Made by a program: the position numbers and the translations under genes. The notes below the pieces were generated by a model. The model had not been told where the DNA came from. It saw only the letters and a list, made by a program, of their open reading frames with translations, and ran no database searches. A stretch of 18,186 nucleotides of DNA from Thermoproteota archaeon (lineage in GTDB: Archaea > Asgardarchaeota > Jordiarchaeia > Jordiarchaeales > Freyrarchaeaceae): positions 1-18,186 of the forward strand of contig JAPDJY010000083.1 of the NCBI GenBank assembly GCA_029258835.1, given 5' to 3'. Positions 2 through 17,851 of this stretch are shown piece by piece (the stretch's first letter is position 1; the number at the start of each line of letters is the position of its first letter).

Positions 2-562
2 CCTGTCAGCGAGGGGCACGTCCTCACCCACCGGGTCCACGATCTTCTCTTCCGATCCCGGTTCACCTGTAAGCATCGACTCCTCCACCCGTAGCCTCAC
101 CGCCGTGAGGACGCGCATGTCCGCAGGGACAATGTCCCCCGCGGCTAAAACCACCATGTCCCCTAGAACAAGGCTTTCAGCATCCACAACCCGTGTCCCA
201 CCACCCCTAACCACGGTTGCCCTAGGGGCAGACAGCTGCTTAAGGGCTTCAAGAGCCTTCTCGGAGCGGTACTCCTGAGCGAAGCTCAGGGTGGCGTTCA
301 TGAAAATTATAGTCAATATTACCGCTGCGTCGATATAATGTCCTCCAATGATCGAGATGGCCGCGGCAACAGCCAGTATGTAGTTTAAGGCGTTGCGAAA
401 CTGCTTAAAAAACATTTTAAGGGCGGAGGGCCTCCTTAGACCGCTTATCCTGTTAGGTCCGTAAAGTTTCAGCCTTCTAGAAGCTTCCTCATCGCTCAAC
501 CCATGAGGGCTCGTCTTCAAGAGAGTCATAACTTCCTCCGAAGGCAGAGCATGCCAGCTCAA
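2..562 (-). CDS. P-type cation-transporting ATPase (P2A/Ca2+-ATPase-like), N-terminal part; runs off the left edge of the window
   Basis: Not in the ORF track; translated by hand from TTG at 562 (preceded by GGTGAGG): MSWHALPSEEVMTLLKTSPHGLSDEEASRRLKLYGPNRI...GDMVVLAAGDIVPADMRVL...VEESMLTGEPGSEEKIVDPVGEDVPLADR. This shows the cation ATPase N-terminal motif (GLS..EA..RL..YGPN), two hydrophobic helices and the actuator GD.VPAD and LTGE motifs. Confidence 0.92.
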   Translation of the reverse strand, partial: MSWHALPSEEVMTLLKTSPHGLSDEEASRRLKLYGPNRISGLRRPSALKMFFKQFRNALNYILAVAAAISIIGGHYIDAAVILTIIFMNATLSFAQEYRSEKALEALKQLSAPRATVVRGGGTRVVDAESLVLGDMVVLAAGDIVPADMRVLTAVRLRVEESMLTGEPGSEEKIVDPVGEDVPLADR

Positions 563-1205: not shown

Positions 1206-2207
1206 TTAGACGATTTTTAGGCTGAAGTCTATTTTTCCGTATCCTGCCGTTGCTAGTTTTCCTACGTGCATGTATCTTCCAAGCGTTAGGAGGGTTAGGG
1301 CTTCGACGGCGTCCTCGTGCCTCCAGAACCGGCTTGGAATCCTGTAGGTTGCCGTGCCGCTGTGGAACGGGCCGTAGTGCTCCCATCTAAGCCTCTCAAT
1401 GGAGAACTTCGAGGAAAACGTTGGTTGCAGGCTTAGATGGCTGGTTTCAATGAGGGACGCCGCCTCTATTATCGACTTCGCCTTCTCAGGGCTGAGCGGC
1501 TGCCACTCGTCGACATGGTACTCTGCTGTGATGCTGTAGCGCCTCGCAAGGTTCCTGATGAGCACGTGGAAGTCGAAGTCAGCCGCTCTCCCGTTGTGAA
1601 CCAGCCTGGTTGGCGTTTCAAAGTTCACTATTATGAATCTTGGCTCGGCTGCAGCCACCCTCTCAGCGACGCCTCTAATGTCGTCAAGGCTAATCACTGC
1701 ACCCCTCTTCTCCCTGTAAACGTACTCGCGCCCATTGCATATGGTTTCCTCCACACCCCTAATGTCGTTAACCACCCTTACAGTTAAAATCTTGAATCTC
1801 CTCCTCTCGTTCTTGGCTCTATCCCTCCCGATCCCCAGCTTCCCCATCTCGACCAGAGTGAATATGTAGATTGCCTCATGCCTCAAAGCCACGTCGCCTA
1901 TAAGGTTTAAGGCAAACCTGAAACGCCTCCTGTTCAGCATCTCGATGGGGTCCAGGGTGAAGGGGCGGGTTATATCCCTCAACCCCCTCCCAATCCTCGC
2001 GTCCGCCTTAACGTCAGGCCTCGTCTCGAAAGTCAAGTAGTAGAGGCACCCCCCTCTAACGCCGCAACCATCACAGGAACGCCTGGGAAAGCCGCATGAA
2101 ATCCTCCTCAAAACATAGCCGAAAACCCCTCTAAGAGCCGTTCCAGTCCACTCCGGAACCGAGAAGTCATCAACAAACTCGCAGTCAACAACAAGCCTCA
2201 AAATCAC
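1206..2207 (-). CDS. cas6: CRISPR pre-crRNA processing endoribonuclease Cas6 (RAMP)
   Basis: N-terminal GTALRGVFG followed by a Cys cluster (C-x6-C-x2-C-x5-C), FETPTRL, and the C-terminal glycine-rich loop HVGKLATAGYG. Likely start is GTG at 2207 after GGAGGGG (the ORF track starts at 2243). Co-oriented with the array. Confidence 0.93.
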   Translation of the reverse strand: MILRLVVDCEFVDDFSVPEWTGTALRGVFGYVLRRISCGFPRRSCDGCGVRGGCLYYLTFETRPDVKADARIGRGLRDITRPFTLDPIEMLNRRRFRFALNLIGDVALRHEAIYIFTLVEMGKLGIGRDRAKNERRRFKILTVRVVNDIRGVEETICNGREYVYREKRGAVISLDDIRGVAERVAAAEPRFIIVNFETPTRLVHNGRAADFDFHVLIRNLARRYSITAEYHVDEWQPLSPEKAKSIIEAASLIETSHLSLQPTFSSKFSIERLRWEHYGPFHSGTATYRIPSRFWRHEDAVEALTLLTLGRYMHVGKLATAGYGKIDFSLKIV

Positions 2208-2251
2208 GGCAACCCCTCCAGCTAAGGATGATACCTCCCACACTCACCCAC

Positions 2252-3137
2252 TCAACACCCATAAACCAAAGAACACCTCACCCCCAGCCCACCCCCTCCA
2301 CATCCCAAAACTAACCCCTCCAAACCTTCCAACCCCTCCTCATCCCTCCTATAAGACGGCTCCAGCACCAGCATCTCTCCCCTAGAAACAGCACCCTCGT
2401 CTACGCTCACCATGCGTCTTTCCACAAGCCCCGGAATAAAACGCCTGGCAGCCCCCAACCCTCTAAGAGACGCCTCGAGACGGGCAATGTTAACAGGCCC
2501 AAACTCCAGCCCACTCAACCTACTTATAATCTCCCCGATTCGAAGCGAGGAGAAAGGCAGCTCATACCACCTGCTCAAGTCCACCATCACCATGCCCTTA
2601 CCCCCTCCAAGTAGGGTGAAGCACTTGAAGCACCACACCCTCCCGGAAAACGTAACAGTATCTTGTGGGAGCCGCCGTGAAGCAACCCGGGATAGGGAGC
2701 GACCCATTAATCTGGTTGCCCCCCTTAACCATGTCAGCCCACACCTCATGCGACGCAGAGGACACAACGAGCGGATACGCCTTCGAAAAACAGCCCTCAA
2801 AGTCCACGTGATCAACCTCAACAAAGCAAAAATCAGGCCACCTAGAAACCTTCAAGTCCAAGAAAAGCAAGGAAAGATAGGCGGCAATCACCTCAGGAAC
2901 AGGCCGCCTCCTCACCCCACACCTCCCACCCTCATACCTAGCCTCAACACCCCCCGCCACCACCCCACACGTGAAAGCCACCACCTCCAGCCTCCCCCCA
3001 CCATCACCAACACAACCCGAAAACCCGAAGAAACCCATCACAACAGGATCTCCCTCCTCCCCCCTAAGGGCAAGGTAAACGTAACCCAACGGAAACGGCA
3101 ACCAGCCAACCTGAAGCCCACCCACATGATAAACCAT
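2252..3137 (-). pseudogene. Frameshifted CARF-like (Rossmann fold) protein with probable C-terminal helical/wHTH domain
   Basis: ORF 2598-3137 (MVYHVGGL...VEVDHVDFEGCF...EVWADMVKGGNQINGSL...RYCYVF...LHP) has a CARF-like first strand and a motif-II-like D-x-x-x-GG segment followed by a Y.YV strand. It continues in a shifted frame across a G-run near 2601-2605 into 2252-2593 (RWYELPF...VNIARLEASL...). ATG at 3137 has a GGAGGT ribosome-binding site. Confidence 0.55.
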
Positions 3138-3215
3138 CCCTCTACCTCCCTGCACAAAATAGAAAAAATAAGATAAAAAATTTTCTCAACTAGCGCATTT
3201 CACCCCCATCTGCCC

Positions 3216-3438: not shown

Positions 3439-5700
3439 ATAACATTCCCCTTTTCATCGGGATTTGTTTGTTGACAATTCCAGAGAAAGACTTTGCAGAA
3501 TTAAAACAGTCTATGTTGCCGTTCCCTTTTCATCGGGATTTGTTTGTTGACAGGATACTTCTTTCAGGCGAGTTCATCAGTGCTATTGGCCAGTTGCCGT
3601 TCCCTTTTCATCGGGATTTGTTTGTTGACATGTTAAAATCGAGGAATCGAAAACAGGGAAAAGCCTGGTGTTGCCGTTCCCTTTTCATCGGGATTTGTTT
3701 GTTGACTGGCCAAAGCACTAAACAAAGATTTCATGAATCAGGTGAGTTGCCGTTCCCTTTTCATCGGGATTTGTTTGTTGACAAACTTTTTCGTCCCCCG
3801 GAGGCGGGGGCGGAATCCCGGTTGCCGTTCCCTTTTCATCGGGATTTGTTTGTTGACAAAGAGATAAATCAGCAAATAGAAGAACTAAGGAAAAGAAGTT
3901 GCCGTTCCCTTTTCATCGGGATTTGTTTGTTGACGTCTGGAAAAGCGTAGTTCATGCAAACGTTAAATTCTTTGAGTTGCCGTTCCCTTTTCATCGGGAT
4001 TTGTTTGTTGACAAAAAGTAGAGAGGTGGTGGTAAAAATGTGTGGGGTAAGGTTGCCGTTCCCTTTTCATCGGGATTTGTTTGTTGACGGGATAAATGCT
4101 GTTGTATCAAGTTCGAAAGATGGTATATAGTTGCCGTTCCCTTTTCATCGGGATTTGTTTGTTGACTAATGAGAAAGGTAGTGGAGCAGGGTATGAGCAA
4201 AGGTTGCCGTTCCCTTTTCATCGGGATTTGTTTGTTGACTGAGGAGGGTGGGGGAGTCGAGAGTATCCGTGTCCAAAACCTGGTTGCCGTTCCCTTTTCA
4301 TCGGGATTTGTTTGTTGACTCTGGACTGTCAACAGCTCCTCAAGTATGGTTTACAAGTATGTTGCCGTTCCCTTTTCATCGGGATTTGTTTGTTGACGAA
4401 ATTGGAGGGCGGGGCGGTCTTCGAAGTCAATGAAGACGTTGCCGTTCCCTTTTCATCGGGATTTGTTTGTTGACATAAGGCAACAATTGCCAGGGTTACC
4501 AGAGGGCATGTCGATTCAGTTGCCGTTCCCTTTTCATCGGGATTTGTTTGTTGACCGGAAACTACGTGATTGCAGTAAGTCAGATGGTCAGCGACGTTGC
4601 CGTTCCCTTTTCATCGGGATTTGTTTGTTGACACAATAAAATTTTTTCTTTTTGTTTTCTTTTTTTTATTTTTGTTGCCGTTCCCTTTTCATCGGGATTT
4701 GTTTGTTGACCTGAAGAGTTTCATAGGGTTTTATTTTGCGACAGTGACGAGCTGTTGCCGTTCCCTTTTCATCGGGATTTGTTTGTTGACGTGGAAAATC
4801 AGAGCTTACAATTCGGAGACGGGGAGGGTGTTGCCGTTCCCTTTTCATCGGGATTTGTTTGTTGACTTAACCACGGAGCTAATAGAGAACATTAGACAGG
4901 AATGTTGCCGTTCCCTTTTCATCGGGATTTGTTTGTTGACTGCGAAAAGCCTCATCCGCAGAGCCAAGATAGCAGGTACTGTTGCCGTTCCCTTTTCATC
5001 GGGATTTGTTTGTTGACTTTATCTGTGAGGGGTGAAAACATGGGTGTGAGAATCGTTGCCGTTCCCTTTTCATCGGGATTTGTTTGTTGACATCACAGGG
5101 CACAATTGTTACAGGACGCCTTAGAAAAGTTGCCGTTCCCTTTTCATCGGGATTTGTTTGTTGACGGAGAGGGGAGAAAAGGAGACGTGGGTGTTAGCTA
5201 CCGCTAGTTGCCGTTCCCTTTTCATCGGGATTTGTTTGTTGACAGAGTATGGATACAGAGGAACTTAGTGCAACTTAAACGGTTGCCGTTCCCTTTTCAT
5301 CGGGATTTGTTTGTTGACTGAGCATTCACATCACGTTTGATGTTCCATTAAGTCAGTTGCCGTTCCCTTTTCATCGGGATTTGTTTGTTGACATAGTTAC
5401 ACTCTACAGCTCAGCAGCAGAGATCATGATAGGGTTGCCGTTCCCTTTTCATCGGGATTTGTTTGTTGACCTTCCAAGCTCAACCGGGATAGGCACAGGA
5501 AAAACAGTTGCCGTTCCCTTTTCATCGGGATTTGTTTGTTGACAAACTAGGAAATCAAAAACGTCAACATGGCTAACATCAGAATGTTGCCGTTCCCTTT
5601 TCATCGGGATTTGTTTGTTGACCCGTCAGAAAACAAAAGGCGTTACGGGAAACTAGAGAAGGAGTTGCCGTTCCCTTTTCATCGGGATTTGTTTGTTGAC
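3439..5700 (-). CRISPR. CRISPR array: 29 identical 37-bp repeats plus one degenerate terminal repeat, and 29 spacers of 36-44 bp
   Basis: Plus-strand repeat is GTTGCCGTTCCCTTTTCATCGGGATTTGTTTGTTGAC (first perfect copy 3515-3551, last 5664-5700). The transcribed sense is inferred as GTCAACAAACAAATCCCGATGAAAAGGGAACGGCAAC, with a TCCC/GGGA hairpin and 8-nt 3' handle ACGGCAAC. The degenerate copy ending at 3475 marks the trailer and the AT-rich leader lies right of 5700, so the array is read on the minus strand. Confidence 0.99.
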
Positions 5701-6050
5701 TGGGTGTTTTATTTTGTTTTTTTGGTTTTTTAAGGTTTTCTTTTCCTATTTTTCTTTCTAGTTGTTCTGGGGGGTTTCTTCGACTTTTGTCGAATACCGA
5801 AAAGTATATATGTGATTGTTGATCTCGCAAAAGTTTTAAAGCGGTGGGAAAACCCCGTTTTTGTTTTCCGACATTTTTCTTCACGATTCTCTGCAATTGA
5901 ATTTTTTAAATTCTTATTTTTCCTTTTACGCTTATTCTTTGCCTTAACTGCACAAACTGTGCAGCGCGTGATAGGATGTTTGAATGCGGGTGGTTTTCTG
6001 TGTTTTGTTGTGTTTTGTTCGGTTTTTCCTGTTTTTTGTTGTATGTTGTT
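5701..6050 (-). promoter_or_regulatory. CRISPR leader / divergent promoter region
   Basis: AT-rich non-coding stretch abutting the last perfect repeat, with TATA-like elements near 5805, 5835 and 5905. It lies between the array and the divergently transcribed cas10. Confidence 0.75.
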
Positions 6051-6052
6051 CC

Positions 6053-6067
6053 AGTAAGATTTATAAG
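6053..6067 (+). promoter_or_regulatory. Putative BRE/TATA promoter of the cmr operon
   Basis: AGTAAGA-TTTATAAG about 75 nt upstream of the cas10 ATG. Confidence 0.5.
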
Positions 6068-6138
6068 CTTAAAATAGTTAGAGAGATTACCAGTGCTGGC
6101 GGGTTTGTCTTTTGGTATGGGTTTGTTGGAGGGTTGGT

Positions 6139-9100
6139 ATGGGTTATTGGGAGGGTAAGTTGGCGGGTTTTCTTCACGATCCTCTAGATAAGGTTTTGAG
6201 GAAGGATCATGCGGAGGATGCGGGGAAGATTGCTTCGGATTTGCTTAAAGGGGCGAATGTTAGTGAGGATGTTATTAGTGAGGTTAGGTGTCATCATGAG
6301 GAGGGGAGGCTTTTACGTGTTCCTGACATGGCGGCGTCTGCGGCTAATAGGACTTTGGTTCCGAGTAAGGGGGGTGATTTGGTTCTTCAGAACCCGTTTT
6401 CGGGTGTTTTGATTAGGCCTGTTCTTCCTGCTCCTTTTTCGGTTGGGGGTTTGCCTAGTTTTGGCTCTGTTGCGGGGGGGATGGGTGGGAGGGAGGCTTT
6501 GTTGAGTGTTGCTCGTTGTCTTGTTCCTCTTTACCATGGGTTTCACCTGGGTTGTGGGAGGGGTGAGGTTGCTCGGTGTGTTTTGCTTCTTCCTGAGGAT
6601 ACTCGTGTTCCTTCTTCTCCGATGTTTTCGCACCTTCAGATGGTGAGTGCGCTTGCGGGTATGGGTGGGGTGGAGGAGCTTGGCTTTCACCTGGTTTATG
6701 TTGATATTGGGGGTGTTCAGGAGTTTATTTCTGTTTCGAGGAAGACCGCTGATTTTTGGGCTTCGAGCTATGTTTTCTCTCTTCTTAGCCTTTCTGGGAT
6801 AAGGGCTTTGGTGGACTGGCTTGGCCCTCAGCAGCTGATCCTTCCTTGGTGGCTTTACTCTCCTCTCATAGAGTCCTGTGTTTTCGGGGTTGAGAAGGAC
6901 TGGGAGGAGCTTGTCGCTCCGACTGTCCCGAACTCTGCTCTCCTGATAATCCGTGGGTCGCCTGAAGGAGGGGTGGACGAGGAGGCGATTAAGAGGAAGC
7001 TGTACGAGGCCATGGTGGACTTCTGGAACGGTGTTTGTGAAAGGTTTCTGGAGGAGGTTAAGAAGTATGTTGGCGGTGGAAAGGCGTGGGGGGAGGTTGA
7101 GAAGCAGGTTAGGAGGCAGATGGAGTTCTTCTCCCTGTTTAGGAAGGTGAGGGTTGCAGTGCTTAGGTATCCGGGGGACGTTAGGGGTGACGGGCAACTT
7201 AAGGAGGCGTATGAGCGGCTTCGGGAGGAGGGGGGATTTGAGGAGCTGGCTGAGCTTAAAGCCGCTCTTAGCAGGGCAGGTCTGGGTTATGAGAGCTTTA
7301 AGCTTGAGGACTTTGAGGCTGTTAACGGGGCGCTTGGCGCCGTCATGTCGTCGGAGAAGGGGAGGGAGCTGTTCGCCTCCGAGGTGGTTCCAGGGGGAGC
7401 GGAGAAGTGTAGCCTCTGCGGCGTAAGGGACTTCCTCAAGCTTGAAGGCGCTTGGAAAAAGCTGGAGGAGGGACTGGTGGTCGATGCCGACGAGCGGCTC
7501 TGCGCCCCATGCCTCCTCAAACGCCTCTTCAGAGAAATTTGGCCGGACGTGCTAAGAAGCCTTGGCGTGAAGCCGCGCGGCGAAACGTTGAAGTATCCTG
7601 TTCCGTCTCTTGGGGATGTTGCGACGGCTTGGTTTAGGGCATCCCTGCTTGCCCTCATGTTAGCGTCGTTAGAGATGGGAGATGATGAAAAACGCGCTGT
7701 CAGTGAAGCGGTAGGTAAGTTCTCGGATTACCTTGAGATCGCGAGAAAGATTGCCAATGAGTACAAGGTTTCACAGGAAAGCATCCGTCTAGTTTTGAAG
7801 GATAAAGAACTGTTAGTGTATAACAGGTTAATTCACTCTCTTTACATGGAGCTTAGTGGTGTTCTGGGCAGGAGGAAAAATGATAGGGCGAAAAACGATA
7901 GTATTGGAAAGTTTGCTAGGAATATTGTGTATACGAGTTCGGTGCTTGTGATGTTTGACGAGCTTGTTTCCAGCCTGTCACGTGAACTGGGGGATGCGGG
8001 GGAGGCGAGGCGCATTCTGAGGGAGGGGAAGGTTGATGACGCTTACGAGAAGGCTGTGGAAGCCTTGAGGAGGCTGAGGGGGAATGGCGAGCTTGTGAGG
8101 CGTGCTTCTGAGAAGCTGTTTGAGCATGTTTGCCGTATTCTTGGTTTGAGTGAGGGGGAGGCTACTCGCAGGTTGGCGGAGGCTGTCCTTAAGCCTGTCC
8201 AGCGGAGGCTTCCTCTTATCAAGAAGGGGGAGAAGCTGCCGTTGCCGGTTAGCCTTACCCCTCAGAGCCGTTTCGCCCTTTTGAGGATGGATGGGGACGA
8301 CGTGGGTGGCAAGTGGATTAGCGGGAAGCTGCTTCCACCTTGGCATGTTTTGATAGCCCCCAACAACGAGGAGAAAGTCCTCGATGATAGGAGGAAGGTG
8401 GAGGATGGGGAGGGGAGGGTTTATGGGGGTGTTTATGCTAGGTCTAGGCCTGTTGCGCCTTCGACTCTTTCGACGCTTTCGATGGTTATCACGCTGAACA
8501 CTGGGGTTGTTCGTAGTGTGGTTGAGGCTTTTGGGGGCTTTCTCGTTTATAGTGGTGGGGATGACGTGCTGGCTATTCTCCCGGCTGAGGTGTGGCACTA
8601 CGTTTACCTTCTCCTGCGGTTCCTTTACTCGCGTGAGGTGATGGACTCGCTCGACGTTGGGAGGGGGCGCGTGTACGTTTACGGGATGGGTGTGAGGGCT
8701 ACGGCTTCCTTCTCCGTTGTGGTGGCTCACTACAAGGCTTACTTGAAGAGGGTGATAGAGGACTCGTATGAGATGCTGGAGAGGCAGAGTAAGGGGTTGG
8801 AGGAGTCCGGGGTCACCGTGAAGGACGGCTTATCCGTTGTTTTGATGTCCCGGAGCGCGCCGATCCAGCGAGTCTACGCCCTTCCCAACATGCTCGTCAA
8901 GAGCGGTGGGAAACTGGAGTCCCTGAGACTGTACGATGAAAGAAGGGTGAGCGAAGCCAGGGGGCGCATCATGAATGGAGGAAAGGTGGTTGACTGGTGG
9001 ATGGGCGAGTTTGGCTCCCTGCTAAGCGCCGTCTCCGGCTCCAAAGTTGAAAGCTATGTCCCGGGTGGTGGCGACTTCAACTTTATTGGGGTTGCTCCGA

Positions 9101-9558
9101 GCTTGGATGGTTTTCTCTTTGAGGGGGGCTCGCCCTCCGGGGAGGGTCGGGTTTACACCCCTATCTCCGACGCCGCCGCCCTCTGCGACCTTGTTAAGTC
9201 TGGTACGGTGAGTTCGAGGGCTTTCCACGACGTCCACCAGTTCTACGTGGTTCAGCGTGAGGGTAAAGGCGAGTTCTACGGTGTGCGTGTTGAAGAGGGG
9301 GACGTCGGGGAGGCGGGTGAGCTTTTGAAGGTTGTTCTCCGCTCGGCGCTTAGGCACAAGGTTGAGGGGGAGGAAGAGGGTAAGAGAGAGGTCGTCGAGG
9401 CGCTTATGGGGGCTGTGGAGGGGATGATGGAGAGAGCCTATGCCACGGAGGACGAGAAGGGGAGGAAGAGGAGGGTGAGCCTGCTCGAGGTTGTCCCGCT
9501 CTCCCTGATACTTTCAAGGTGCTTGGAGAATGCAGTTTTGAGCGATGGGGGGTGGTGA
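6139..9558 (+). CDS. cas10: Type III-B Cas10 (Cmr2) large subunit with HD motif and intact GGDD palm
   Basis: LHDPLDK, PEDTRVP, DIGGVQEFISVSRKTADFWASSYVFS, zinc finger CSLCG...LCAPCLLKR, MDGDDVG and VYSGGDDVLA. Likely start is ATG 6139 after GGAGGG (the ORF track starts at TTG 6112). Confidence 0.97.
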   Translation: MGYWEGKLAGFLHDPLDKVLRKDHAEDAGKIASDLLKGANVSEDVISEVRCHHEEGRLLRVPDMAASAANRTLVPSKGGDLVLQNPFSGVLIRPVLPAPFSVGGLPSFGSVAGGMGGREALLSVARCLVPLYHGFHLGCGRGEVARCVLLLPEDTRVPSSPMFSHLQMVSALAGMGGVEELGFHLVYVDIGGVQEFISVSRKTADFWASSYVFSLLSLSGIRALVDWLGPQQLILPWWLYSPLIESCVFGVEKDWEELVAPTVPNSALLIIRGSPEGGVDEEAIKRKLYEAMVDFWNGVCERFLEEVKKYVGGGKAWGEVEKQVRRQMEFFSLFRKVRVAVLRYPGDVRGDGQLKEAYERLREEGGFEELAELKAALSRAGLGYESFKLEDFEAVNGALGAVMSSEKGRELFASEVVPGGAEKCSLCGVRDFLKLEGAWKKLEEGLVVDADERLCAPCLLKRLFREIWPDVLRSLGVKPRGETLKYPVPSLGDVATAWFRASLLALMLASLEMGDDEKRAVSEAVGKFSDYLEIARKIANEYKVSQESIRLVLKDKELLVYNRLIHSLYMELSGVLGRRKNDRAKNDSIGKFARNIVYTSSVLVMFDELVSSLSRELGDAGEARRILREGKVDDAYEKAVEALRRLRGNGELVRRASEKLFEHVCRILGLSEGEATRRLAEAVLKPVQRRLPLIKKGEKLPLPVSLTPQSRFALLRMDGDDVGGKWISGKLLPPWHVLIAPNNEEKVLDDRRKVEDGEGRVYGGVYARSRPVAPSTLSTLSMVITLNTGVVRSVVEAFGGFLVYSGGDDVLAILPAEVWHYVYLLLRFLYSREVMDSLDVGRGRVYVYGMGVRATASFSVVVAHYKAYLKRVIEDSYEMLERQSKGLEESGVTVKDGLSVVLMSRSAPIQRVYALPNMLVKSGGKLESLRLYDERRVSEARGRIMNGGKVVDWWMGEFGSLLSAVSGSKVESYVPGGGDFNFIGVAPSLDGFLFEGGSPSGEGRVYTPISDAAALCDLVKSGTVSSRAFHDVHQFYVVQREGKGEFYGVRVEEGDVGEAGELLKVVLRSALRHKVEGEEEGKREVVEALMGAVEGMMERAYATEDEKGRKRRVSLLEVVPLSLILSRCLENAVLSDGGW

Positions 9559-10718
9559 GGTTGAAGCTGCTGGAGGTTGTCATGTGGCCTTTGGGTGAGC
9601 TGTTCTTCAGGACTCCCATCCCATTCGTCCTTGGAGGATACGCTGAAACCCGTACAACCCCCCCGGAGTTCGGCGTGGCGGGGATGCTGCGCTCATCGAT
9701 AATGGACCTGCGGGACGCAGGCCTCCTAGACGTGGAGGACGAACTCCTCTCCAAGGTTCTCGACTTGGGAGGGGGGCATACGACCTACAACTTTTGCTGG
9801 AGGCTCGTTGGACCACACCTTTACAGGGACGGAGAAGTGTTCTACCCCATGCCAATGGACGTCTTCAAGAAGGAGGAAGGAGAGAGCGGCAAACAGGATC
9901 AATCACAGGGTGGGGGGCAGGAGGGAGGGAAGGTGACATTCATGCTTGGCGATTACCTGATTGAACAGTTGACCCCTATTCCTTCTGGTAGGGGGTTTGA
10001 GCTCAGGAGGCTTCTTGGCCCAGCTGTGCTTGACGGTGAGGAGGCTCGGGGGTGGCTTGCAAGTGCAAGCTTCATGAAACGCTACTTGGAGGGGGAGAGA
10101 GAGTTTAGGTGCGTGGAGGGGAGGGACGTGGTGAGGGAGCGGGATGTTGTTGAGAAGAGGATTTTTCCGAGGGTTAAGCTTGACAGGGAGAGGAAAACCG
10201 TCGAGATTAGGGATGGGGAGGGTATGTACTACTCCTTAGAGAAGCTCGTTTTGAGGGAGGGATGGGGGTTCATAGCTGGGGTTTGGCTTGACGAGTGTAG
10301 TGATGCGGCTGACGTCTTCCTAAAGCTTGACGGGTGTACGGTTAGGTTTGGGGGGAGGGGTGGAATGGTTAGGCTTGAGGTTAGGTGGGCTAAATCCCTC
10401 CTAGAGGGGGGTTTGAGCTGGGATGTGCCCGGTGAGGCCAGGCTTCTGCTAACCTCATCAGCCATACTTGGGGATGGAGGGTACACGTCCTTCCTGCCAT
10501 CCCTGAACGTTGAGGGGGGTGTTTGGCGCCAGGTTTGGATCGGGGGCTGGGACTACGCTGCTGGAAGGCCGAAGGCTATGTATGCTGGAGTCGCCCCCGG
10601 CTCCGTTTACTACTTGCGCGACGTCTCAGGCGGCGACGTCCTCGAGAGGAAGTTTGTCCATCCTGATTATCGAAGGGTTTTGGGTTCGTCTCTGATAGCT
10701 AAAGGATGGGGTGTTTGA
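9555..10718 (+). CDS. cmr3: Cmr3 (Cas5-group RAMP)
   Basis: PLGELFFRTPIPF, GPHLY, VRFGGRGG and GGWDYAAGRPKAMYAGVAPGSVYY. Overlaps the cas10 stop (GTGA). Confidence 0.93.
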   Translation: MRLKLLEVVMWPLGELFFRTPIPFVLGGYAETRTTPPEFGVAGMLRSSIMDLRDAGLLDVEDELLSKVLDLGGGHTTYNFCWRLVGPHLYRDGEVFYPMPMDVFKKEEGESGKQDQSQGGGQEGGKVTFMLGDYLIEQLTPIPSGRGFELRRLLGPAVLDGEEARGWLASASFMKRYLEGEREFRCVEGRDVVRERDVVEKRIFPRVKLDRERKTVEIRDGEGMYYSLEKLVLREGWGFIAGVWLDECSDAADVFLKLDGCTVRFGGRGGMVRLEVRWAKSLLEGGLSWDVPGEARLLLTSSAILGDGGYTSFLPSLNVEGGVWRQVWIGGWDYAAGRPKAMYAGVAPGSVYYLRDVSGGDVLERKFVHPDYRRVLGSSLIAKGWGV

Positions 10719-11636
10719 ATGAGTGGGAAGAAAGGGGTTATTCCCTCCGTGTACGAGGTCGCTGGCTTGATGTACTTCTGGTGTGAGAGCGAGTTTTTCC
10801 CTGGCGGCGAAAGGGAGGCTGGCCCGATAGACCTGACCGTTCAGAGGAACTCTAAGGGGATTCCATACGTGAGAGGTAGCAGCGTGAAGGGAGCGATCAG
10901 GTCGTTTTACGAGGTGTTGAAAGGGGAGGATGAGGCTAACGTGGTCTTTGGCTCCACGGACAAGGCTGGATGCGTCGTGATAGGGAACGCCGAGATACTT
11001 GCGTTTCCCGTGAAGGCTGACAGGGATCTCTTCCTGTACGTTACGTCTCCAAGCCAGATTTCAGCATACGCTAGGGAGGCGGACAGGGCGTTAGGGTTGA
11101 GCGTTGAGGAGAACTGGAACGTGAGCGGCGAGGAGGCTGCGTCGGCGAGCCTTGACGGTGAAGTTGAACTGATGGATGGACGCTACACGCTTAAACTGAG
11201 AAGGGAGGAGAAGGCTGAGAGGTTGGCTAAAAACCTGGTTGATACGGCGGTTCCTAAGGTGGATGGTGCTCCTGCCCCCGGCTACGGATACCTTAAGTCT
11301 AAGCTGGAGAAGCTGGTCGTCGTTGAGGACGGGGTTTTCAGGGAGCTTGTGAATAATGGCCTCGTCGTGGTTTTGAGGATAGCTCTAGAACGCTCCACCA
11401 AGACTGCGGCTGGAAAGGCCATGTTCTACCAGGAGCTGATTCCCGAGGGAACCCTCCTCTTCGCCCCCCTAATGAAGGCTATACGCCTCAGGAAGGGGGA
11501 GGAGGGTGAGGCAGGCATCGTGGACGGGTTTGTCGAGGAGCTGAAGAGAGGGTATCTGCTCAACCTTGGAGGGGACGAGACGACGGGGAAGGGTGTGGTC
11601 CGAGTGCTCCTATGCCAGAGGAGGGAGACGGGTTGA
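10719..11636 (+). CDS. cmr4: Cmr4 (Cas7-group RAMP backbone), copy a
   Basis: IDLTVQR..GIPYVRGSSVKGAIR, AEILAFPV, VTSP, FYQELIPEGTL and LGGDETTGKG. Confidence 0.93.
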   Translation: MSGKKGVIPSVYEVAGLMYFWCESEFFPGGEREAGPIDLTVQRNSKGIPYVRGSSVKGAIRSFYEVLKGEDEANVVFGSTDKAGCVVIGNAEILAFPVKADRDLFLYVTSPSQISAYAREADRALGLSVEENWNVSGEEAASASLDGEVELMDGRYTLKLRREEKAERLAKNLVDTAVPKVDGAPAPGYGYLKSKLEKLVVVEDGVFRELVNNGLVVVLRIALERSTKTAAGKAMFYQELIPEGTLLFAPLMKAIRLRKGEEGEAGIVDGFVEELKRGYLLNLGGDETTGKGVVRVLLCQRRETG

Positions 11637-12040
11637 GTGAGGTTAAGGCAGCCCTAGAGTTCGCAAAGTCCTTCGGCCTTAAGGGGGATGAGGCAGACTC
11701 CGTCTCGAAGATAGCTAAGAGAATGTTCTCGATGACGATTGCCGGGGGGGCGATCTCAAGCCTCCTCTTCGCCTACAAGAAGGCTAAAAACAGCAACGTT
11801 AAGCGCCTCCTCGAAAAATACGGCAGCGATGTTTACAGCAGCATCAAGGAAGAGGAGGAGAGGAGGTGGGGGGCTGTAACCGCCTTCATCCTGAAGGAGG
11901 CTATTCCAGACGTGAGCGGGGATGGCGAACTTATAGGGTTAATGGAGAAGCTTCACGACAGAAATATCAGGGGGAAGGTTGAGAGGCGCATCCTACGCTA
12001 CCTGAACGCGCTGAGCAGGGTTTTAGACGCGCTGGCATGA
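11633..12040 (+). CDS. cmr5: Cmr5 (Cas11 small subunit), divergent
   Basis: About 135-aa helical protein following cmr4. SKIAKRMFSMTIAGGAISSLLFAYKK resembles the Cmr5 LP.MI..NGL...LAF..SK segment. TTG start overlaps the cmr4 stop. Confidence 0.75.
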   Translation: MSEVKAALEFAKSFGLKGDEADSVSKIAKRMFSMTIAGGAISSLLFAYKKAKNSNVKRLLEKYGSDVYSSIKEEEERRWGAVTAFILKEAIPDVSGDGELIGLMEKLHDRNIRGKVERRILRYLNALSRVLDALA

Positions 12041-12041
12041 G

Positions 12042-13463
12042 GTGGAAGGGTTGAAGTGTCTTCCATTCACCTTCTTCGCGCTAACCAACGTCCACCCCGG
12101 AGCCCCGGGAGGAGGCATAGAGGTAGCCGACCTTCCAGTCTACAGGGACAGGTTCTCAACGGTCAAGATTAGGGGGGAGTCGCTGAAGGGAGCCTTCAGG
12201 TCAACGGTCAACAGGAACCTGAGAGAGCTTGAGGAGCCACTTTTCGGAGGCAGGGAGCATGCAGGAGTTTTCTCCATCCTCGACGCCGTCCTCGTGTTCG
12301 TGCCGGTAACAATTGCCGAGCACGGCTTAGTGTATCTCACCAGCCCCCACCTGCTCAACCACTTTGCAATGCACCTGGCATTGGGAAACGCCGAGCAGGC
12401 TGTGCACGTAAGCCGCATAGCCTCAAGCCTCTCCGGCATGCCTTCGGCGAAGGCTTTCTCAACCACGGAGGATGAGAAGCTGACCGTTCTCGGGGAGTTC
12501 ACGTTCACCAACACCTACGCCGACTGGCTGGAGCCGCTCAGCACGGCGCTCTTAGACGTTCAGCAGAGGGTGCTTGGCGGCGATCCACCAGTCCCCATAG
12601 AGCACCTGGTCGTGGTGAACGACGTGGTGGCGTCGCTGCTGCTCGAGAAAGCAATGTTTCTCAAGCCCGGAGTTAAGCTGAAAGGGTTTGGAGGGAGTGG
12701 TGACAGGTACCTTAAGAACGTGGAGCATGGACCGTGGTTTGAAGAGGAGATCCCCAAGTTCTCGGTTTTCTCGAGTGCTTTCATCGTATCGCAGAGAAGC
12801 GTTGAGGTAAGCGTGGAAAGGGACGAGGCGACGAGCTTCCTCAAGGAAAGCCTCACGAAGCTGAAGGAGGCAACAGTTACGATGGGAGGAAAGAAGGTTG
12901 AAGCCAGGATAGGCGGAGAAGCTCTTGAAAGAATACTTGAGGAGTACTTCTTTAACAGGCCCTTAATCGTCGGAGGGAGAGAGACCATGGCGAGAGGGGT
13001 GCTGAAGCCGGCCAAACTGAAGTTCAACGGAGGCTGGCCTGAAATAAGGGCTGAGGGGGAAAGCCACGTGGGGGATGTCGCCGTCAGGAGGGGGGACGAG
13101 CTCTTCATAGACCTGCTGCGCGAGCTGGATGATGACATCAGGGAAAAGGCAGATGAAATGAAAAGCAAGTTTTCAAGCCTTCCTGAGAGGATGCGCAGGC
13201 TCCCCCTCACCACGCTACACATGTTTTACACGAAGGTCAAGGCGGAGTCCTCTGGGAAGGGCTACGAAGAAGTCAGGAAAGCACTGGACAAGACCAGGGA
13301 GAAAGAGTACTTTAGCGAGGAGTGGCTGTGTGGAGGAGAGCTTGCCGAGACCGGACAGGAATACATGGAGAAGCTGCTTCAAGGATACAGGGGGGTGGTT
13401 GAAGCATTCACCAAGCTCAAGTATGTCGTTGAAAGCTACTCGAAGAAGGAGGGGGAAGAGTGA
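12042..13463 (+). CDS. cmr4: Second Cmr4 paralog fused to a C-terminal Cmr5-like helical domain (473 aa)
   Basis: Residues 1 to ~325 contain VHPG..ADLPVYRD..IRGESLKGAFR, ILDAVLVFVPV, LTSP, WFEEEIP and VGGRETMARG. The last ~120 aa (KSKFSSLPERMRRLPLTTLHMFYTK...AFTKLKYVVES) look like Cmr5. Confidence 0.85.
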   Translation: MEGLKCLPFTFFALTNVHPGAPGGGIEVADLPVYRDRFSTVKIRGESLKGAFRSTVNRNLRELEEPLFGGREHAGVFSILDAVLVFVPVTIAEHGLVYLTSPHLLNHFAMHLALGNAEQAVHVSRIASSLSGMPSAKAFSTTEDEKLTVLGEFTFTNTYADWLEPLSTALLDVQQRVLGGDPPVPIEHLVVVNDVVASLLLEKAMFLKPGVKLKGFGGSGDRYLKNVEHGPWFEEEIPKFSVFSSAFIVSQRSVEVSVERDEATSFLKESLTKLKEATVTMGGKKVEARIGGEALERILEEYFFNRPLIVGGRETMARGVLKPAKLKFNGGWPEIRAEGESHVGDVAVRRGDELFIDLLRELDDDIREKADEMKSKFSSLPERMRRLPLTTLHMFYTKVKAESSGKGYEEVRKALDKTREKEYFSEEWLCGGELAETGQEYMEKLLQGYRGVVEAFTKLKYVVESYSKKEGEE

Positions 13464-14296
13464 GCGAGAAAGGCAACATATACGAAAAGTATGTGAGAAA
13501 AGCAGCACTCCTCATGAAGAAAATAGACGTGGAGGAAAGGGGAAAGAGGAAATACAACAAGAACGACTACAAGAATGATCTTGCCGGGTGGCTGGTCGAG
13601 GAGGTAGGGAAACATGCGAGGGACATCTGTGAGCGGTGTGGCAGGTATTTGGACGTGTTGAAGGACGCGTACTTGAGCGTGGGGAAGGATGTTTTGGTCT
13701 GCGAGTTCACGTCAACCTCAAGGATTATAGCTGATGTTTCATCTCCCTTCGCCTGGCTGATAGACGAGGTGGGGCTTTCGTGGGATCCGCTGCTGGATGC
13801 GCCAACCATACCTGGGCTGAAAGGCACTGTGAGGGCTGCGGCCCAGTGGGACAACCCGAAATTGGTTGAGCCCCTCTTCGGGAAGGCGGAGAAAGAGGAG
13901 TCGTACTTCTCCCTTCTGACCTTCACCGAGGCGTACCCCGTCGACCTGCCCCGAGACGGGTCACTACTCGTGAGGGACGTGATAACGCCGATATACTCGC
14001 TGGAGAAGAATGCCGTGGAGGAGCATAAAGCGGAGCCCACACCCGTTCAGATGATAGCCCTGAACAAGGGGGTGAAGTTCAGGTTCCTCGTCGTGCTGAA
14101 CTCCGACTACGAGAAGCTACGTGAAAAAGCATGCAAGGCGCTTGATTCGAGCAACTATCCTGAAAACGTCGTGGAAAAACTGAAGGCGTATATTAAATCT
14201 GTGGGGGAGGAATCCGGAGTGGGGGCGAAGACCTCCTCCGGGTACGGCTACTACACGCTAAACAACTTAACCTTGGAAAGGGGAGTGAGAAGATGA
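13460..14296 (+). CDS. cmr6: Cmr6 (Cas7-group RAMP)
   Basis: EVGLSWDPLLDAPTIPGLKG, FTEAYP, DVITPIY, PTPVQMIAL and GVGAKTSSGYG. Confidence 0.92.
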   Translation: MSEKGNIYEKYVRKAALLMKKIDVEERGKRKYNKNDYKNDLAGWLVEEVGKHARDICERCGRYLDVLKDAYLSVGKDVLVCEFTSTSRIIADVSSPFAWLIDEVGLSWDPLLDAPTIPGLKGTVRAAAQWDNPKLVEPLFGKAEKEESYFSLLTFTEAYPVDLPRDGSLLVRDVITPIYSLEKNAVEEHKAEPTPVQMIALNKGVKFRFLVVLNSDYEKLREKACKALDSSNYPENVVEKLKAYIKSVGEESGVGAKTSSGYGYYTLNNLTLERGVRR

Positions 14297-15717
14297 GAAA
14301 GGTAGCCGAAATAGGAATAGAGAGTTTAACTCCGTCGGCTATAGGAGGATACGACCCGAACAAGCACGACGACATACTGAGGGGGACGTCGATAAGGGGG
14401 CTAGCAGCATGGTGGCTGAGAGCAATAGTAAGCGGGAAAGCATATGATAGAGGAGACCCGCAACATAAGGAGAAAGCAAAAAAAGCACAGGAAATGATAC
14501 TAGGTTCAACCGAGAGTAGTTCGCTACTAACTATTAAGGTTAACATTGGAGAAGAGGGTATACGTTCATTAAATGAAAACGATAAACAAGGTTTGGTAAG
14601 AGTGGAGCAACGGAGAGGAAGAAAGCCAGAATTTAGAGTTACAGGTACTGATAATATTCGGTTAAGTCTCTTGCTAATGGGGAAGAAAGCTGAAAGCGAG
14701 AGGAAGTTGCGTGGTAAGTTAAGCCTCTTATTAGGCGAGTTATTTAAAATTTTTAGCGCTACGATATTAGTTTATTCTTCAAGCAAGAAAGTACTCTTGG
14801 AAGAGGCCTTAGGCTTGCATGCTCTAGTGCTCGCCTTACTCCTCGAAGGAATAGGTAAGGGTTCACGTAGGGGATTAGGAGCGTTAAAGATAACAGGAAT
14901 AAAACTTTCGGGGGACATGGAAGCGTTTCTCTCAAAGAACGGTTATAGGGGTTTGCTGGGGCTAACTTCAGGAGTTAAAGGGCATGAAAGCGTCGAAGAA
15001 GTAATCGAGGATGCCTTAAAAATAGCAGAAAAACTAATTGAAAAAATGGAGCAAGCTGAGGAGAAGAGCTATAAAGCACTTGAAAAACCACCTGAAATAC
15101 CTTCCCTAAGTAGGAATGCGGTGGAGATATATGTCAAGAGATTACATCCCAGTTCGAACTATAAAGAACGCCTAGCTAACATAAACACCATCCTAGAGGA
15201 TCTTTTCTTAAGAAGAGCAGGAAAAAACAAACTTGTTGCTTGTCTTCAAGAAGTAAGTGGAAACGATGCAAAAGCTCTCGGCTCCTACATCTTGGGGCTA
15301 CCCAGAGCAGCTAAGTCACCACCAAGAAAGCATCACTACACGGTGCGCTTTAATCCTAATCCTGAAAAAGAAAAAACTAGAACTAGAAAGTGTTTTACAG
15401 ACGAAACAGATGTGCCATCTGATATTAGAGAACAATATAGCGGATTTGTAAAGCTTAAAGTTGAAGTTAAAAAAGATAAGGAAGGTAAGGAGAAAAAGGA
15501 GTACAATTATGAACATTATCGCAGGCCATCACCTCTTATCGTATCATTAATAGACGAGAGAACAATTGTTATGAGCTTTTTCAAGTCATCTGATTGGCCG
15601 GGTGAATTGCAATGGTTTACATCCCATCAGAAAGAAGTTACTGTACGAAGCATAACAGACGCATACAATATTGTCTCAAACTACCTGCAACGTAATTTCA
15701 TTAAGGTGTGGCCTTAA
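14293..15717 (+). CDS. cmr1: Cmr1 (Cas7-group RAMP)
   Basis: LTP..IGG, LRGTSIRGLAAWWLRA, GIGKGSRRGLG, LGLPR and RRPSPL. Confidence 0.93.
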   Translation: MRKVAEIGIESLTPSAIGGYDPNKHDDILRGTSIRGLAAWWLRAIVSGKAYDRGDPQHKEKAKKAQEMILGSTESSSLLTIKVNIGEEGIRSLNENDKQGLVRVEQRRGRKPEFRVTGTDNIRLSLLLMGKKAESERKLRGKLSLLLGELFKIFSATILVYSSSKKVLLEEALGLHALVLALLLEGIGKGSRRGLGALKITGIKLSGDMEAFLSKNGYRGLLGLTSGVKGHESVEEVIEDALKIAEKLIEKMEQAEEKSYKALEKPPEIPSLSRNAVEIYVKRLHPSSNYKERLANINTILEDLFLRRAGKNKLVACLQEVSGNDAKALGSYILGLPRAAKSPPRKHHYTVRFNPNPEKEKTRTRKCFTDETDVPSDIREQYSGFVKLKVEVKKDKEGKEKKEYNYEHYRRPSPLIVSLIDERTIVMSFFKSSDWPGELQWFTSHQKEVTVRSITDAYNIVSNYLQRNFIKVWP

Positions 15718-15778
15718 ACAGCTGCTCGGGAGGCAGCCATCTTCTTGGGGCTCTTCATCCTCTGTTACGGGGGTGTCC

Positions 15779-16084
15779 ATGTTGGAAGTTGAGTTTCGAG
15801 TTAAGGAGTTTGAGAAACATACCCTTGTTCATTTTGAGTTGGATGGGGCTATTACACCCGATGTTTTGAGGGAGCTTGTACCGCCGAAGGTTAACCCAGC
15901 TAAAGGGGTTGTCCTCAGCGGTAGGGGCCCGGTTTGGCTGTACTGCTTTCTCACCCACGTATATCATCCCACCCGGTTCGTTGCAACATATGACCCAAGG
16001 ATAGGAGGTGTTGTGGTCGAGTCACATGACCCTGACTATAAGATAGGTGACGTAGTAAAGGTGGATGTTGAAGAGAGTGTTTAA
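15779..16084 (+). CDS. csx3: Csx3/Crn3 cA4 ring nuclease
   Basis: 101 aa from ATG 15779 (GGGGTG ribosome-binding site): KGVVLSGRGPVWLYCFLTHVYHPTRFVATYDPRIGGVVVESH. The His, His, Asp, Arg and His pattern typical of Csx3 is retained. Confidence 0.95.
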   Translation: MLEVEFRVKEFEKHTLVHFELDGAITPDVLRELVPPKVNPAKGVVLSGRGPVWLYCFLTHVYHPTRFVATYDPRIGGVVVESHDPDYKIGDVVKVDVEESV

Positions 16085-16227
16085 GAGTAAGCTGTTCTTC
16101 TATGGCATTAAATCGGGAACTGCAGGTGAAAGGAGGTTTCGGCGGTCAACCAATAACCAATAATTCCCTTCGCGAGCTGACTGTGGAATTGACTGCGTTG
16201 ATTTTCATTTGCTCCGGGACAGGGTTA

Positions 16228-16272
16228 CTATTTTTCGTTTTTTATTTTATTTTGCTTCTTTTTCTTTTTGGG
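16228..16272 (+). terminator. T-rich archaeal terminator region between the convergent csx3 and wHTH-CARF genes
   Basis: Multiple oligo-T tracts (TTTTTCGTTTTTTATTTTATTTTGCTTCTTTTTCTTTTT). Confidence 0.5.
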
Positions 16273-16273
16273 T

Positions 16274-16945
16274 TTAGGTTTGGAGGAGTTGTTGTTTGAG
16301 GGTGTTTGGTGAGGTTATCCAGTAGAGTTTTCTTTGCTTTTCGTATATGTATATGAGGGGTGTTTTGTGTTTTTCTGCTTGCTTGTATAGGGCTATTGTG
16401 GCTGGTTTTGTGGCTGAGGTGCAGTCTGCGATTACCTTGTAGTTTTTGACGAGTTCTTCCAGTTTTGGCTGGATGCATGCTTCGACTTTCTCGACGTTTG
16501 TGATGTCCTCTTCCGTCATTAGGAGCCATTCCACGTCTAGGTGTATGAGCCCCTCCCAGTCTGTGACCGCCCTGTACGTTGTGGCTACGACTATCTTCTC
16601 AGGGTTGATCCCCTCTTCTCGTAGGAGTTTGATGGCGGTTTCGGTTTCAGCCTCCGCTCTCCCCGTCCTTTCCCCTAGGAGCCCCATGTAGGCGTAGCTG
16701 CAGGGTGCGTCGAAAAGGTAGCATATGGGCGTCTTGAGTACAAGCCTAACCATTCCCTTCGTCTTGGTTATGAAGCCGTTTCTCTCAAGTATTCTAAGGT
16801 TGTACTCTAAGGTTGATTTCGCTATCCCGGTTTCTCTGGCGAGGCGACTTAGGCTGGCTTCCCCTCCGCTCAGGGCTAGCGCCCTCATTAATGCCCTAAC
16901 TTTCCTCCTGCGAAGGAGCCCGTAGTTCACCTCCAACCCGCCCAC
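16274..16945 (-). CDS. Winged-HTH (ArsR/IclR-like) + CARF domain protein, putative cOA-responsive transcription regulator
   Basis: N-terminal LSRLARETGIAKSTLEYNLRILERNGFI (wHTH). C-terminal Rossmann-like domain with YMGLLG, IVVATT and IADCTSATKPATIALY...PLIYI (CARF motif II, D-x-T-x-x-x-K). The start may be TTG 16936 after GGAGGTG. Confidence 0.82.
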   Translation of the reverse strand: MGGLEVNYGLLRRRKVRALMRALALSGGEASLSRLARETGIAKSTLEYNLRILERNGFITKTKGMVRLVLKTPICYLFDAPCSYAYMGLLGERTGRAEAETETAIKLLREEGINPEKIVVATTYRAVTDWEGLIHLDVEWLLMTEEDITNVEKVEACIQPKLEELVKNYKVIADCTSATKPATIALYKQAEKHKTPLIYIYEKQRKLYWITSPNTLKQQLLQT

Positions 16946-16949
16946 CTCC

Positions 16950-17851
16950 CATAGATCTCAAGGTGTTTTGCTGTGCCTGCCAGCTCCCCGTCACGGCGTC
17001 ATTTGCCCGTTCTTTCATCCTGCCATTTTCGCGTGTCCATATTTCTCCTGTTTGCCCCCAGAGCACCATCCCAGCTTCTATTGGACGTACTTCTCCTTCC
17101 TTTTCCTCTGCCCATCCAAGCCTTATGGCGTGGTTCACCGTCCTTTCCCCATACCTCTTTTCGAGTGCTTCTCTCACCGTCAACCCCCCATCCGTTAGTT
17201 GCCCTATTAACTCTGTTAAGCCTATCTCACCTCCTAAACCTGACGGTCACTGCCGGTATGCGTATAACCTTTCTAAAGCGTTCGTGCACGTAGAAAACAG
17301 GAGCCCCCATCCCGGGGGAGTTGGCTGCAAGTATCGCTATAGCCGTCTCAGGCCTCCCTCCCGTCGCATGGACGAACACGGAGCCCCCCTGTACTGCCTT
17401 ACAATGGCTGTTACGGATTTGAAGAGGTTTGCCAGCCCATCCGTAAGCTTCTCCGGGTCGCCAAGCCCGCCCACCTTCAACGTGTCAGCAGAAACCCTCC
17501 TACCATACTCCTCAGCCAAAAGACGATCAATATACCGTTTAAGGACGGTAGCGCATAGCCCGCCGACCCTCATGCCGGAGAAAAGCAGGCAAACCCACTG
17601 TTGCCTCCCTCTCTCATACTCCAACAAAAGGTCAAGGAAGGTGTTAAGCTCAGCGCTGGCATTCCTAGGGCTTCCAGAAACAAACTCCAGCAACCTGCCG
17701 ACTAACTCATCCAACTCCATCTCCCACAGGAAGAACCCCTTTCCAAGTCAGGCAAACTAGCCTGTATGAGGCCAGCCCTCCGCGCATTCGCAACTATTGA
17801 GGCACCCACCAAAACCATGTGAGCAGACCCCCTCGCAAGAAACACCTCCAA
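16950..17851 (-). pseudogene. Disrupted APE2256/Sso1393 (Crn1)-family CARF protein with C-terminal wHTH-like segment
   Basis: Fragments in different frames: HMVLVGASIVAN (~17790-17820); SPRNASAELNTF...LFSG...GGLCATVLKRY (ORF 17337-17720); after a G6-run frameshift at ~17385, VFVHATGGRPETAIAILAAN...PVFYVHERFRKVIRIP; stop at 17227-17229; then LTVREALEKRYGERTVNHAIRLGW. These match the family motifs VG.S, SAELN, ATGG and YVHE.F. Confidence 0.8.

Follow-up and report, generated by a model that had tools for sequence, protein, structure and literature searches.

In a type III CRISPR system whose only intact local CARF gene encodes a DNA-binding protein, is the signal directed at transcription and not at a toxic nuclease? 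This question was raised by the window analyzed here, the whole 18.2-kb contig (C49) of a Jordarchaeales (Asgard) metagenome-assembled genome (MAG; 2.72 Mb in 91 contigs, 94.7% complete, 6% contamination). The placement in the Jordarchaeales follows the organisms named for the closest homologues. The window carries a Cmr operon with cas10, a gene for the ring nuclease Csx3 and, at 16274-16945 on the minus strand, a gene for a protein of 220-223 aa with a winged helix-turn-helix (wHTH) and a CARF domain. A preliminary description of this DNA had proposed that RNA recognition is wired through cyclic oligoadenylate (cOA) to a reversible transcriptional response instead of a toxic nuclease, and this proposal depended on the genome holding no intact Csx1-type effector. 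When the assembly was searched genome-wide, an intact Csx1 gene was found on contig C18 and an intact CARF-PIN gene was found as well, so the proposed wiring was not borne out. The explanation we prefer, with a probability of roughly 0.6, is that cyclic tetra-adenylate (cA4) made by the Cmr complex would act on Csx1 in trans, with Csx3 providing the reset and the wHTH-CARF protein tuning transcription in a manner similar to Csa3.

Type III-B module, ring nuclease and effectors

Proteins were compared with Pfam, NCBIfam (TIGR) and PADLOC-DB models; the cut-offs quoted are each model's own. The product of cas10/cmr2 (6139-9558, plus strand) contains HD nuclease and cyclase motifs and matched Cmr2_N (PF12469) at 1e-20, palm2 (PF22335) at 4e-14 and TIGR02577 with 133.5 bits (cut-off 79.4). 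Its HD motif was GFLHDPLDK. The acidic motif of the first palm, MDGDDVGGKW, was aligned to MDGDDMGK of Pyrococcus furiosus Cmr2 (4w8y), and the GGDD motif YSGGDDVLAILP (SGGDDVLAILP) was aligned to YAGGDDVLAILP of the same structure. The intact GGDD reported in the preliminary description was thus confirmed, with the HD, MDGDDVGG and GGDD motifs all aligning to P. furiosus Cmr2. With both the GGDD and the first-palm DxD in place, the protein is predicted to be a cyclase-competent Cas10.

The cas10 gene was followed on the same strand by cmr3 (9519-10718; PF09700, 4e-25), cmr4 (10719-11636; TIGR02580, 155.6 bits), the small-subunit gene cmr5 (11612-12040), a gene for a second, enlarged Cmr4-like RAMP of 473 aa (12042-13463; TIGR02580, 106 bits), cmr6 (13460-14296; TIGR01898, 75 bits) and cmr1 (14293-15717; TIGR01894, 46 bits). 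Cmr3 and Cmr5 fell under their NCBIfam cut-offs; Cmr3 cleared the Pfam cut-off (89.5 bits against 21), and Cmr5, slightly below the cut-off of TIGR01881 (6.6e-06), was assigned with the help of its operon position. The enlarged Cmr4-like subunit between cmr5 and cmr6 was also kept in the operons of Jordarchaeales and Nitrososphaerales relatives. About 9.9 kb of neighboring cmr genes was free of frame breaks. A single operon thus encodes Cmr3, Cmr4, Cmr5, Cmr6 and Cmr1, and cas6 and a CRISPR array lie alongside; as judged from its gene content, the type III-B (Cmr) CRISPR-Cas module of this Jordarchaeales archaeon is complete and of the standard kind.

Immediately downstream, csx3/crn3 (15779-16084, plus strand) encodes a predicted cA4 ring nuclease, the off-switch of the circuit. 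Its product matched PF09620 with 103 bits (cut-off 21), TIGR02579 with 115.3 bits (cut-off 55.4) and Archaeoglobus fulgidus AF1864 at 5e-31. In the alignment to the A. fulgidus structure (3wzi), the equivalents of S44, G45, R46, H57, H60, D69, R71 and H80 were all kept. Csx3 is a cA4-specific ring nuclease, and these residues bind and cleave cA4 (Athukoralage et al., PMC7371418). The earlier statement that Csx3 has catalytic-type residues was therefore correct, since every known catalytic residue of A. fulgidus Csx3 was present. Its suggestion of cA4 as the likely messenger is also supported as plausible, given the specificity of Csx3 for cA4 (PMC7371418) and the intact catalytic residues of the window protein.

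Among the window open reading frames (ORFs) scanned, none was found to encode a HEPN, PD-(D/E)xK, NucC, SAVED or membrane effector, in agreement with the preliminary description, which had recognized no Csx1/Csm6/Can/NucC or membrane effector in the window. Elsewhere in the assembly, an intact csx1 (C18:30735-32000, minus strand) encodes a protein of 422 aa that matched the PADLOC model CARF9--CARF_HEPN at 5.6e-95, Csx1_CARF at 5e-37, Csx1_HEPN at 7e-15 and TIGR01897 with 246.9 bits (cut-off 110), covering 1-413 of 417. The frame was open from M70, the HEPN motif was RNFLAH (R-x4-6-H type) and the protein was full length. This gene lies at the end of a Cmr remnant (C18:32009-36738) that encodes a Cmr1-like RAMP, an MNT/HepT pair, Cmr4, Cmr5 and Cmr6. 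Cas10 and Cmr3 were absent from the remnant, and the MNT/HepT toxin-antitoxin pair occupied their place. With no Cas10 in the remnant, its Csx1 needs a cyclase from elsewhere, such as that of the window; by its gene neighborhood it is an orphan effector that has to use a cyclase encoded at another locus. In the closest complete relative, Csx1 was only 22% identical to the C18 protein and was encoded away from Cmr genes, indicating that the C18 remnant is not a conserved arrangement.

Other CARF effectors were encoded in the same assembly. A full-length CARF_m1-PIN gene (C16:20805-22310, minus strand; 3.7e-144) has a second type III module in its vicinity; the Cas10 of that module, 747 aa long, carries HD and GGDD motifs. 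A profile match identified a CARF7 protein with a RelE/DUF2103-type tail (C48:14616-15755, minus strand), adjoining genes for Cas2, a CARF5/Csx14-like protein and a split CARF-PIN. Nothing above cut-offs was found in this genome for the Cas02710, CARF_Card1 and SAVED families. Three Cas10-like genes were present in the assembly; the GGDD motif was retained in two (C49 and C16) and absent from the gene on C2. The latter (C2:150185-153475, minus strand) encodes a 1097-aa Cas10-like protein with an HD motif and no GGDD, so this type III-like locus is probably a non-signaling variant. A CRISPR array with a different repeat was located at about C2:155700-161400.

The wHTH-CARF protein and its relatives

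The ORF of the wHTH-CARF protein was uninterrupted and comprised a winged helix (residues 1-71) and a CARF domain (residues 78-213). Pfam identified HTH_20 at residues 17-61, part of an ArsR/MarR-type winged helix at residues 17-63, and the C-terminal 140 residues lay outside any Pfam match. When a profile of the family was compared with the PDB sequences, only HTH proteins and no CARF proteins were recovered, so the assignment of the CARF domain needed fold comparison and PADLOC. The AlphaFold (AF2) model, built with 32 homologues, had a predicted local distance difference test score (pLDDT) of 94.8. In the VIA fold comparison, residues 78-213 matched CARF domains only, with Z scores from 13.9 to 10.6 (1xmx, 13.9; Can2, 13.4; Card1, 12.8; Cdn1, 12.5; cA4-bound Csa3, 6wxq, 10.6); the structural matches comprised VC1899, Can2, Card1, Cdn1, Csm6, Cad1, Cam1, SSO1393 and Csa3. 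Foldseek gave a probability of 1.00, with values of 1.5e-05 or better to Cdn1, Csm6, Can2 and Card1. CARF domains carry the signature [DN]x[ST]xxx[KR] after strand 4, and the segment D171-C-T-S-A-T-K177, invariant in 32 sequences, fits it. In catalytic CARF domains, a Ser or Thr typically ends the strand-1 loop; in this family the loop was G-L-L-G-[ERK]-R, without a terminal Ser/Thr.

The top PADLOC match was PDLC01987 (CARF_m5--CARF) at 1.5e-17 over residues 39-210, with the runner-up at 1e-07. The protein did not qualify as Csa3: TIGR01884 gave 21.4 bits against a cut-off of 60.2, in the HTH region only, and no Csa3_N match was obtained with Pfam. No match to Crn1 or other ring-nuclease models of NCBIfam (NF040581, NF040951) was found at E<=0.01. 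A search for 'CARF_m5' found no paper within the searchable literature. The protein thus belongs to a catalogued family, CARF_m5, that is uncharacterized as far as the searchable literature shows. It has no nuclease domain, and it is plausibly a cOA-responsive regulator.

The type III-linked clade of CARF_m5 to which the protein belongs comprised at least 92 clusters (37-80% identity) from Jordarchaeales/Freyarchaeia, Bathyarchaeia and Nitrososphaerales, and the family was present in 12 of 201 sampled Asgard genomes. Eleven related loci were examined, seven from Jordarchaeales, Bathyarchaeia and Nitrososphaerales and four from Freyarchaeum-type genomes (G038, G028, G070 and G047). In all 11, the wHTH-CARF gene adjoined a Cas10 operon, mostly divergently, and in most of them Csx1, Cas02710, CARF2-HEPN or CARF-PIN genes lay within about 12 kb. 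The closest relatives carried a cassette of APE2256-CARF, wHTH-CARF and CARF-HEPN (Cas02710) genes, divergent from the cas10 of a Cmr operon of the same type. In Bathyarchaeia, the wHTH-CARF gene was divergent from Csm-type operons, with Csx1 and Csx3 or Csm6/Cas02710 nearby; in the Nitrososphaerales genome it stood beside a Cmr operon. It neighbored a CARF2-HEPN gene in G070 and lay about 11 kb from a CARF-PIN gene in the closed genome G038. Compared with these relatives, the window cassette was rearranged: it was convergent with cmr1-csx3, the CARF-HEPN partner was absent and the APE2256 partner had decayed. Since every examined locus was type III and CARF nuclease genes were usually close, the family looks like an accessory regulator alongside nucleases and no substitute for them. 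The preliminary description had named co-occurrence in related loci as a check; what was found there fits a regulator working next to nucleases.

Two genes of G038 (3.58 Mb) were read in pieces. Its CARF_m1-PIN gene (C1:2681376-2682871) was read in two frames, and the Cas10 beside its wHTH-CARF gene appeared to be split into ORFs of 546 and 518 aa (L027:5971-9127). Both could be intron-split genes instead of broken ones.

The remaining two CARF-like genes of the window were frame-broken in the MAG assembly, so the earlier observation that only the wHTH-CARF gene is intact held for this contig. The gene at 17010-17827 (minus strand), a decayed CARF7 (Cas_APE2256) gene with a C-terminal winged helix, was read in four pieces, with three frame breaks near 17720, near 17395 (in a G6 run) and near 17245. 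An intact paralogue was found at C59:2749-3600 (284 aa, CARF7/APE2256 plus winged helix; CARF7--CARF, 1.7e-49). The contig ends 360 nt past the decayed gene. The gene at 2252-3185 (minus strand), a broken member of the CARF3 family with a CARF domain and a probable winged helix, was interrupted by a single frame break, which coincides with a G5 run (near 2584-2604); this gene lies beyond the interval 6139-16945 of the preliminary description. Its two frames were 52% and 43% identical to an intact paralogue of 344 aa (C48:9860-10891), which matched the PADLOC model CARF3--CARF at 5e-76. For the 2252-3185 gene, there were also leads toward HFX_2341_N/WHD_DUF6293. Bulge-helix-bulge (BHB) micro-introns were considered as the cause of the breaks and rejected: at four of four breaks the homologous segments abutted with zero inserted bases, showing that the breaks, as read in the MAG assembly, are simple indels and not introns.

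Readings of the circuit and comparison with known systems

In the explanation that we prefer, binding of target RNA would turn on the Cas10 cyclase, and the resulting cA4 would diffuse and activate the Csx1 encoded in trans on C18. The other CARF effectors of the genome may also respond, and the C16 system possibly co-supplies cA4. Csx3 would degrade the cA4 and reset the cell. The wHTH-CARF protein, probably a homodimer, would bind cA4 across its CARF dimer, with altered DNA binding as the outcome, and would tune CRISPR/cas transcription as a Csa3-like feedback branch that runs parallel to the nuclease branch and does not replace it. Because cOA is diffusible, effectors encoded in trans can respond; since the C18 Csx1 also has no cyclase of its own, a supply of cA4 from the window Cmr complex would be the most economical picture. 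A further proposal, to which we give somewhat less than even odds, is that the type III-linked CARF_m5 clade, in which the order of the two domains is reversed, may form another class of transcription factors responsive to cOA. Such a class would feed the cA4 level back onto type III expression and would here be the sole remaining output in cis, following the decay of the adjacent CARF genes and the loss of the CARF-HEPN gene that relatives carry at its flank.

Several points weigh against this explanation. The cOA species, the ligand binding and the DNA binding are all inferred from sequence, the coupling to Csx1 in trans included, and cA4, not another ring size, is presumed to be the trigger of the trans effectors. 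When the promoter regions of the window and of two relatives were searched for a shared operator, no common inverted repeat was found. The wHTH-CARF gene was convergent with the cmr operon in the window, compared with its divergence from cas10 in the relatives. Further, two distant CARF_m5 paralogues of the same architecture were found in housekeeping contexts of the same genome, one (C5:36904-37710, minus strand; 1.2e-48) near comA/comB (coenzyme-M) and carbamoyl-phosphate synthase genes and the other (C21:8409-8999, minus strand; 3.6e-20) near genes for an MFS transporter and threonyl-tRNA synthetase (ThrRS). CARF-type sensors may thus regulate non-CRISPR genes in this archaeon. With such paralogues present, the fold alone is no proof of a cOA ligand, and the argument rests on the strict type III linkage of the clade. 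Finally, the nuclease contigs could in principle come from another population, the assembly being a MAG with 6% contamination; the data give no indication of such misbinning, although it is possible.

If the Cmr complex signaled to the transcription factor only, with Csx3 as the reset and the nuclease effectors given up, one would expect what the contig itself displays: the wHTH-CARF gene was its only intact CARF gene, it lacked the CARF-HEPN neighbor that wHTH-CARF has in the closest relatives, and no Cas02710 or SAVED gene was present in the assembly. However, intact Csx1, CARF-PIN and CARF7-RelE/DUF2103 genes were present in that assembly, cOA acts in trans, and the C18 Csx1, without its own Cas10, needs a cyclase such as that of the window. 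In addition, the contig stops so soon after the decayed CARF gene (360 nt) that its neighbors are left out of view. We regard a purely transcriptional output as very unlikely. The least probable of the explanations, in our estimate, is that errors of assembly or binning account for the broken CARF genes or for the presence of the nucleases in the same genome. Of the four frame breaks, two do lie in G5/G6 runs, the contamination of the MAG is 6% and the tetranucleotide correlation of C49 with the bin was 0.88 against a median of 0.93. By contrast, about 9.9 kb of adjacent cmr genes was unbroken and three of the breaks fell within one 0.8-kb gene; the composition of C18, C16 and C2 was typical of the bin, and the GC content of C49 lay inside the bin's continuous range. 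Moreover, the two CARF genes, if intact, would add regulator or ring-nuclease types and leave the verdict unchanged.

The wHTH-CARF protein might also act as an additional ring nuclease or as a sponge for cOA, in the manner of the 'long' ring nucleases of the Crn1 family with a winged helix (Sis0811, SSO1393). Ring nucleases of CARF-wHTH type are documented (PMC8643638), and the CARF domain of the window protein also matched those of SSO1393 (3qyf, Z 11.1), Sso2081 (7ygh, Z 10.6) and Sis0455 (7z55). However, a fold resemblance at Z 10.6-11.1 is in itself common to all CARF domains, and the ring-nuclease models of NCBIfam, Crn1 included, gave no match at E<=0.01. The strand-1 loop was also without the Ser/Thr typical of catalytic CARF domains, a dedicated Csx3 is already encoded next to the gene, the N-terminal domain is a canonical DNA-binding winged helix of the ArsR/MarR type, and the usual placement of the gene, divergent from cas10, suits a regulator, all of which makes a ring nuclease or sponge unlikely. 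It is highly improbable that the protein responds to some non-cOA ligand and controls the CRISPR locus without input from Cas10 signaling. The two CARF_m5 paralogues that stand beside housekeeping genes and not cas genes would be in keeping with such a role, but the clade of the window protein (at least 92 clusters, 37-80% identity) was beside a Cas10 operon in every locus examined and retained the invariant motif of the CARF ligand site.

The closest functional parallel to the preferred explanation is Csa3, a CARF-wHTH protein that binds cA4 and regulates CRISPR genes (PMC8844856, PMC8699464, PMC9704534). Like Csa3 of the Sulfolobales (PDB 2WTE, 6WXQ), the window protein is a CARF sensor fused to a winged helix, has no nuclease domain and is encoded in a CRISPR locus, and by analogy the expected shared role would be cA4-modulated transcription of CRISPR/cas genes. 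However, its wHTH domain is N-terminal and its CARF domain C-terminal, whereas Csa3 has the reverse order; it falls in CARF_m5 and not in the Csa3 models; and it is tied to type III operons, whereas Csa3 is tied to type I-A adaptation genes. The type III-B system of A. fulgidus with Csx3/Crn3 (AF1864; PMC7371418) resembles the window locus in its Cmr module with an adjacent Csx3; the window locus differs in its Asgard host and in the extra enlarged Cmr4-like subunit of its Cmr operon. In the Csx1-dependent type III-B systems of Pyrococcus and Sulfolobus, Cmr acts with the cA4-activated HEPN RNase Csx1 (PMC9704534). The present genome likewise combines a GGDD Cas10 with a CARF/R-x4-H HEPN Csx1 and a ring-nuclease off-switch; here, however, Csx1 lies outside the locus, on another contig beside a Cmr remnant devoid of Cas10 and Cmr3, and its coupling to the window complex is putative. 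A type III cOA signal is also linked to a transcriptional response in CalpL-CalpT-CalpS, in which cA4 starts a SAVED-Lon protease cascade that releases an extracytoplasmic function (ECF) sigma factor (PMC12751052). None of those genes was found here, and no SAVED domain was above cut-offs in the genome.

A purely transcriptional, reversible response in place of growth-arresting nucleases would have mattered, but Csx1 and other CARF nucleases are retained in this genome. The locus is nevertheless a well-defined case of type III-B signaling in an Asgard archaeon. The genome combines a complete Cmr module that has no effector in cis with an orphan Csx1 whose adjoining Cmr remnant is devoid of Cas10, which suggests that trans-coupling may occur. 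The catalogued wHTH-CARF family, tightly linked to type III systems in several archaeal phyla, is a good candidate for cOA feedback on CRISPR expression.

Other features of the contig and related arrays

Upstream of the Cmr operon, the window begins with a fragment of a P-type ATPase gene (2-562, minus strand), followed by cas6 (1206-2243, minus strand; PF10040 CRISPR_Cas6, 2e-11), which encodes the endoribonuclease that processes CRISPR RNA. The CRISPR array (3439-5700) contains a 37-nt repeat (GTTGCCGTTCCCTTTTCATCGGGATTTGTTTGTTGAC) in 30 copies, of which the first is degenerate. An AT-rich leader and the cas10 promoter region (5701-6138) lie between the array and cas10. Within this region, a perfect palindrome, CTGCACA-AAC-TGTGCAG, was observed at 5948-5964, upstream of cas10 and about 175 nt from its start. 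It occurs nowhere else in the genome and is a candidate operator, but one isolated site is no basis for an inference. Scans for Rfam families and tRNAs gave no matches in the window.

Three more arrays with a near-identical repeat were found at C48:17077-18176, C59:69-764 and C59:9626-11476. Their repeat departs from that of the window near the 3' end only (…GGGTTTTGTTTGTTTTC). In addition to its array, C48 holds cas2 and several CARF genes, and the short contigs C48 and C59 that carry these arrays are probably pieces of one large CRISPR island.

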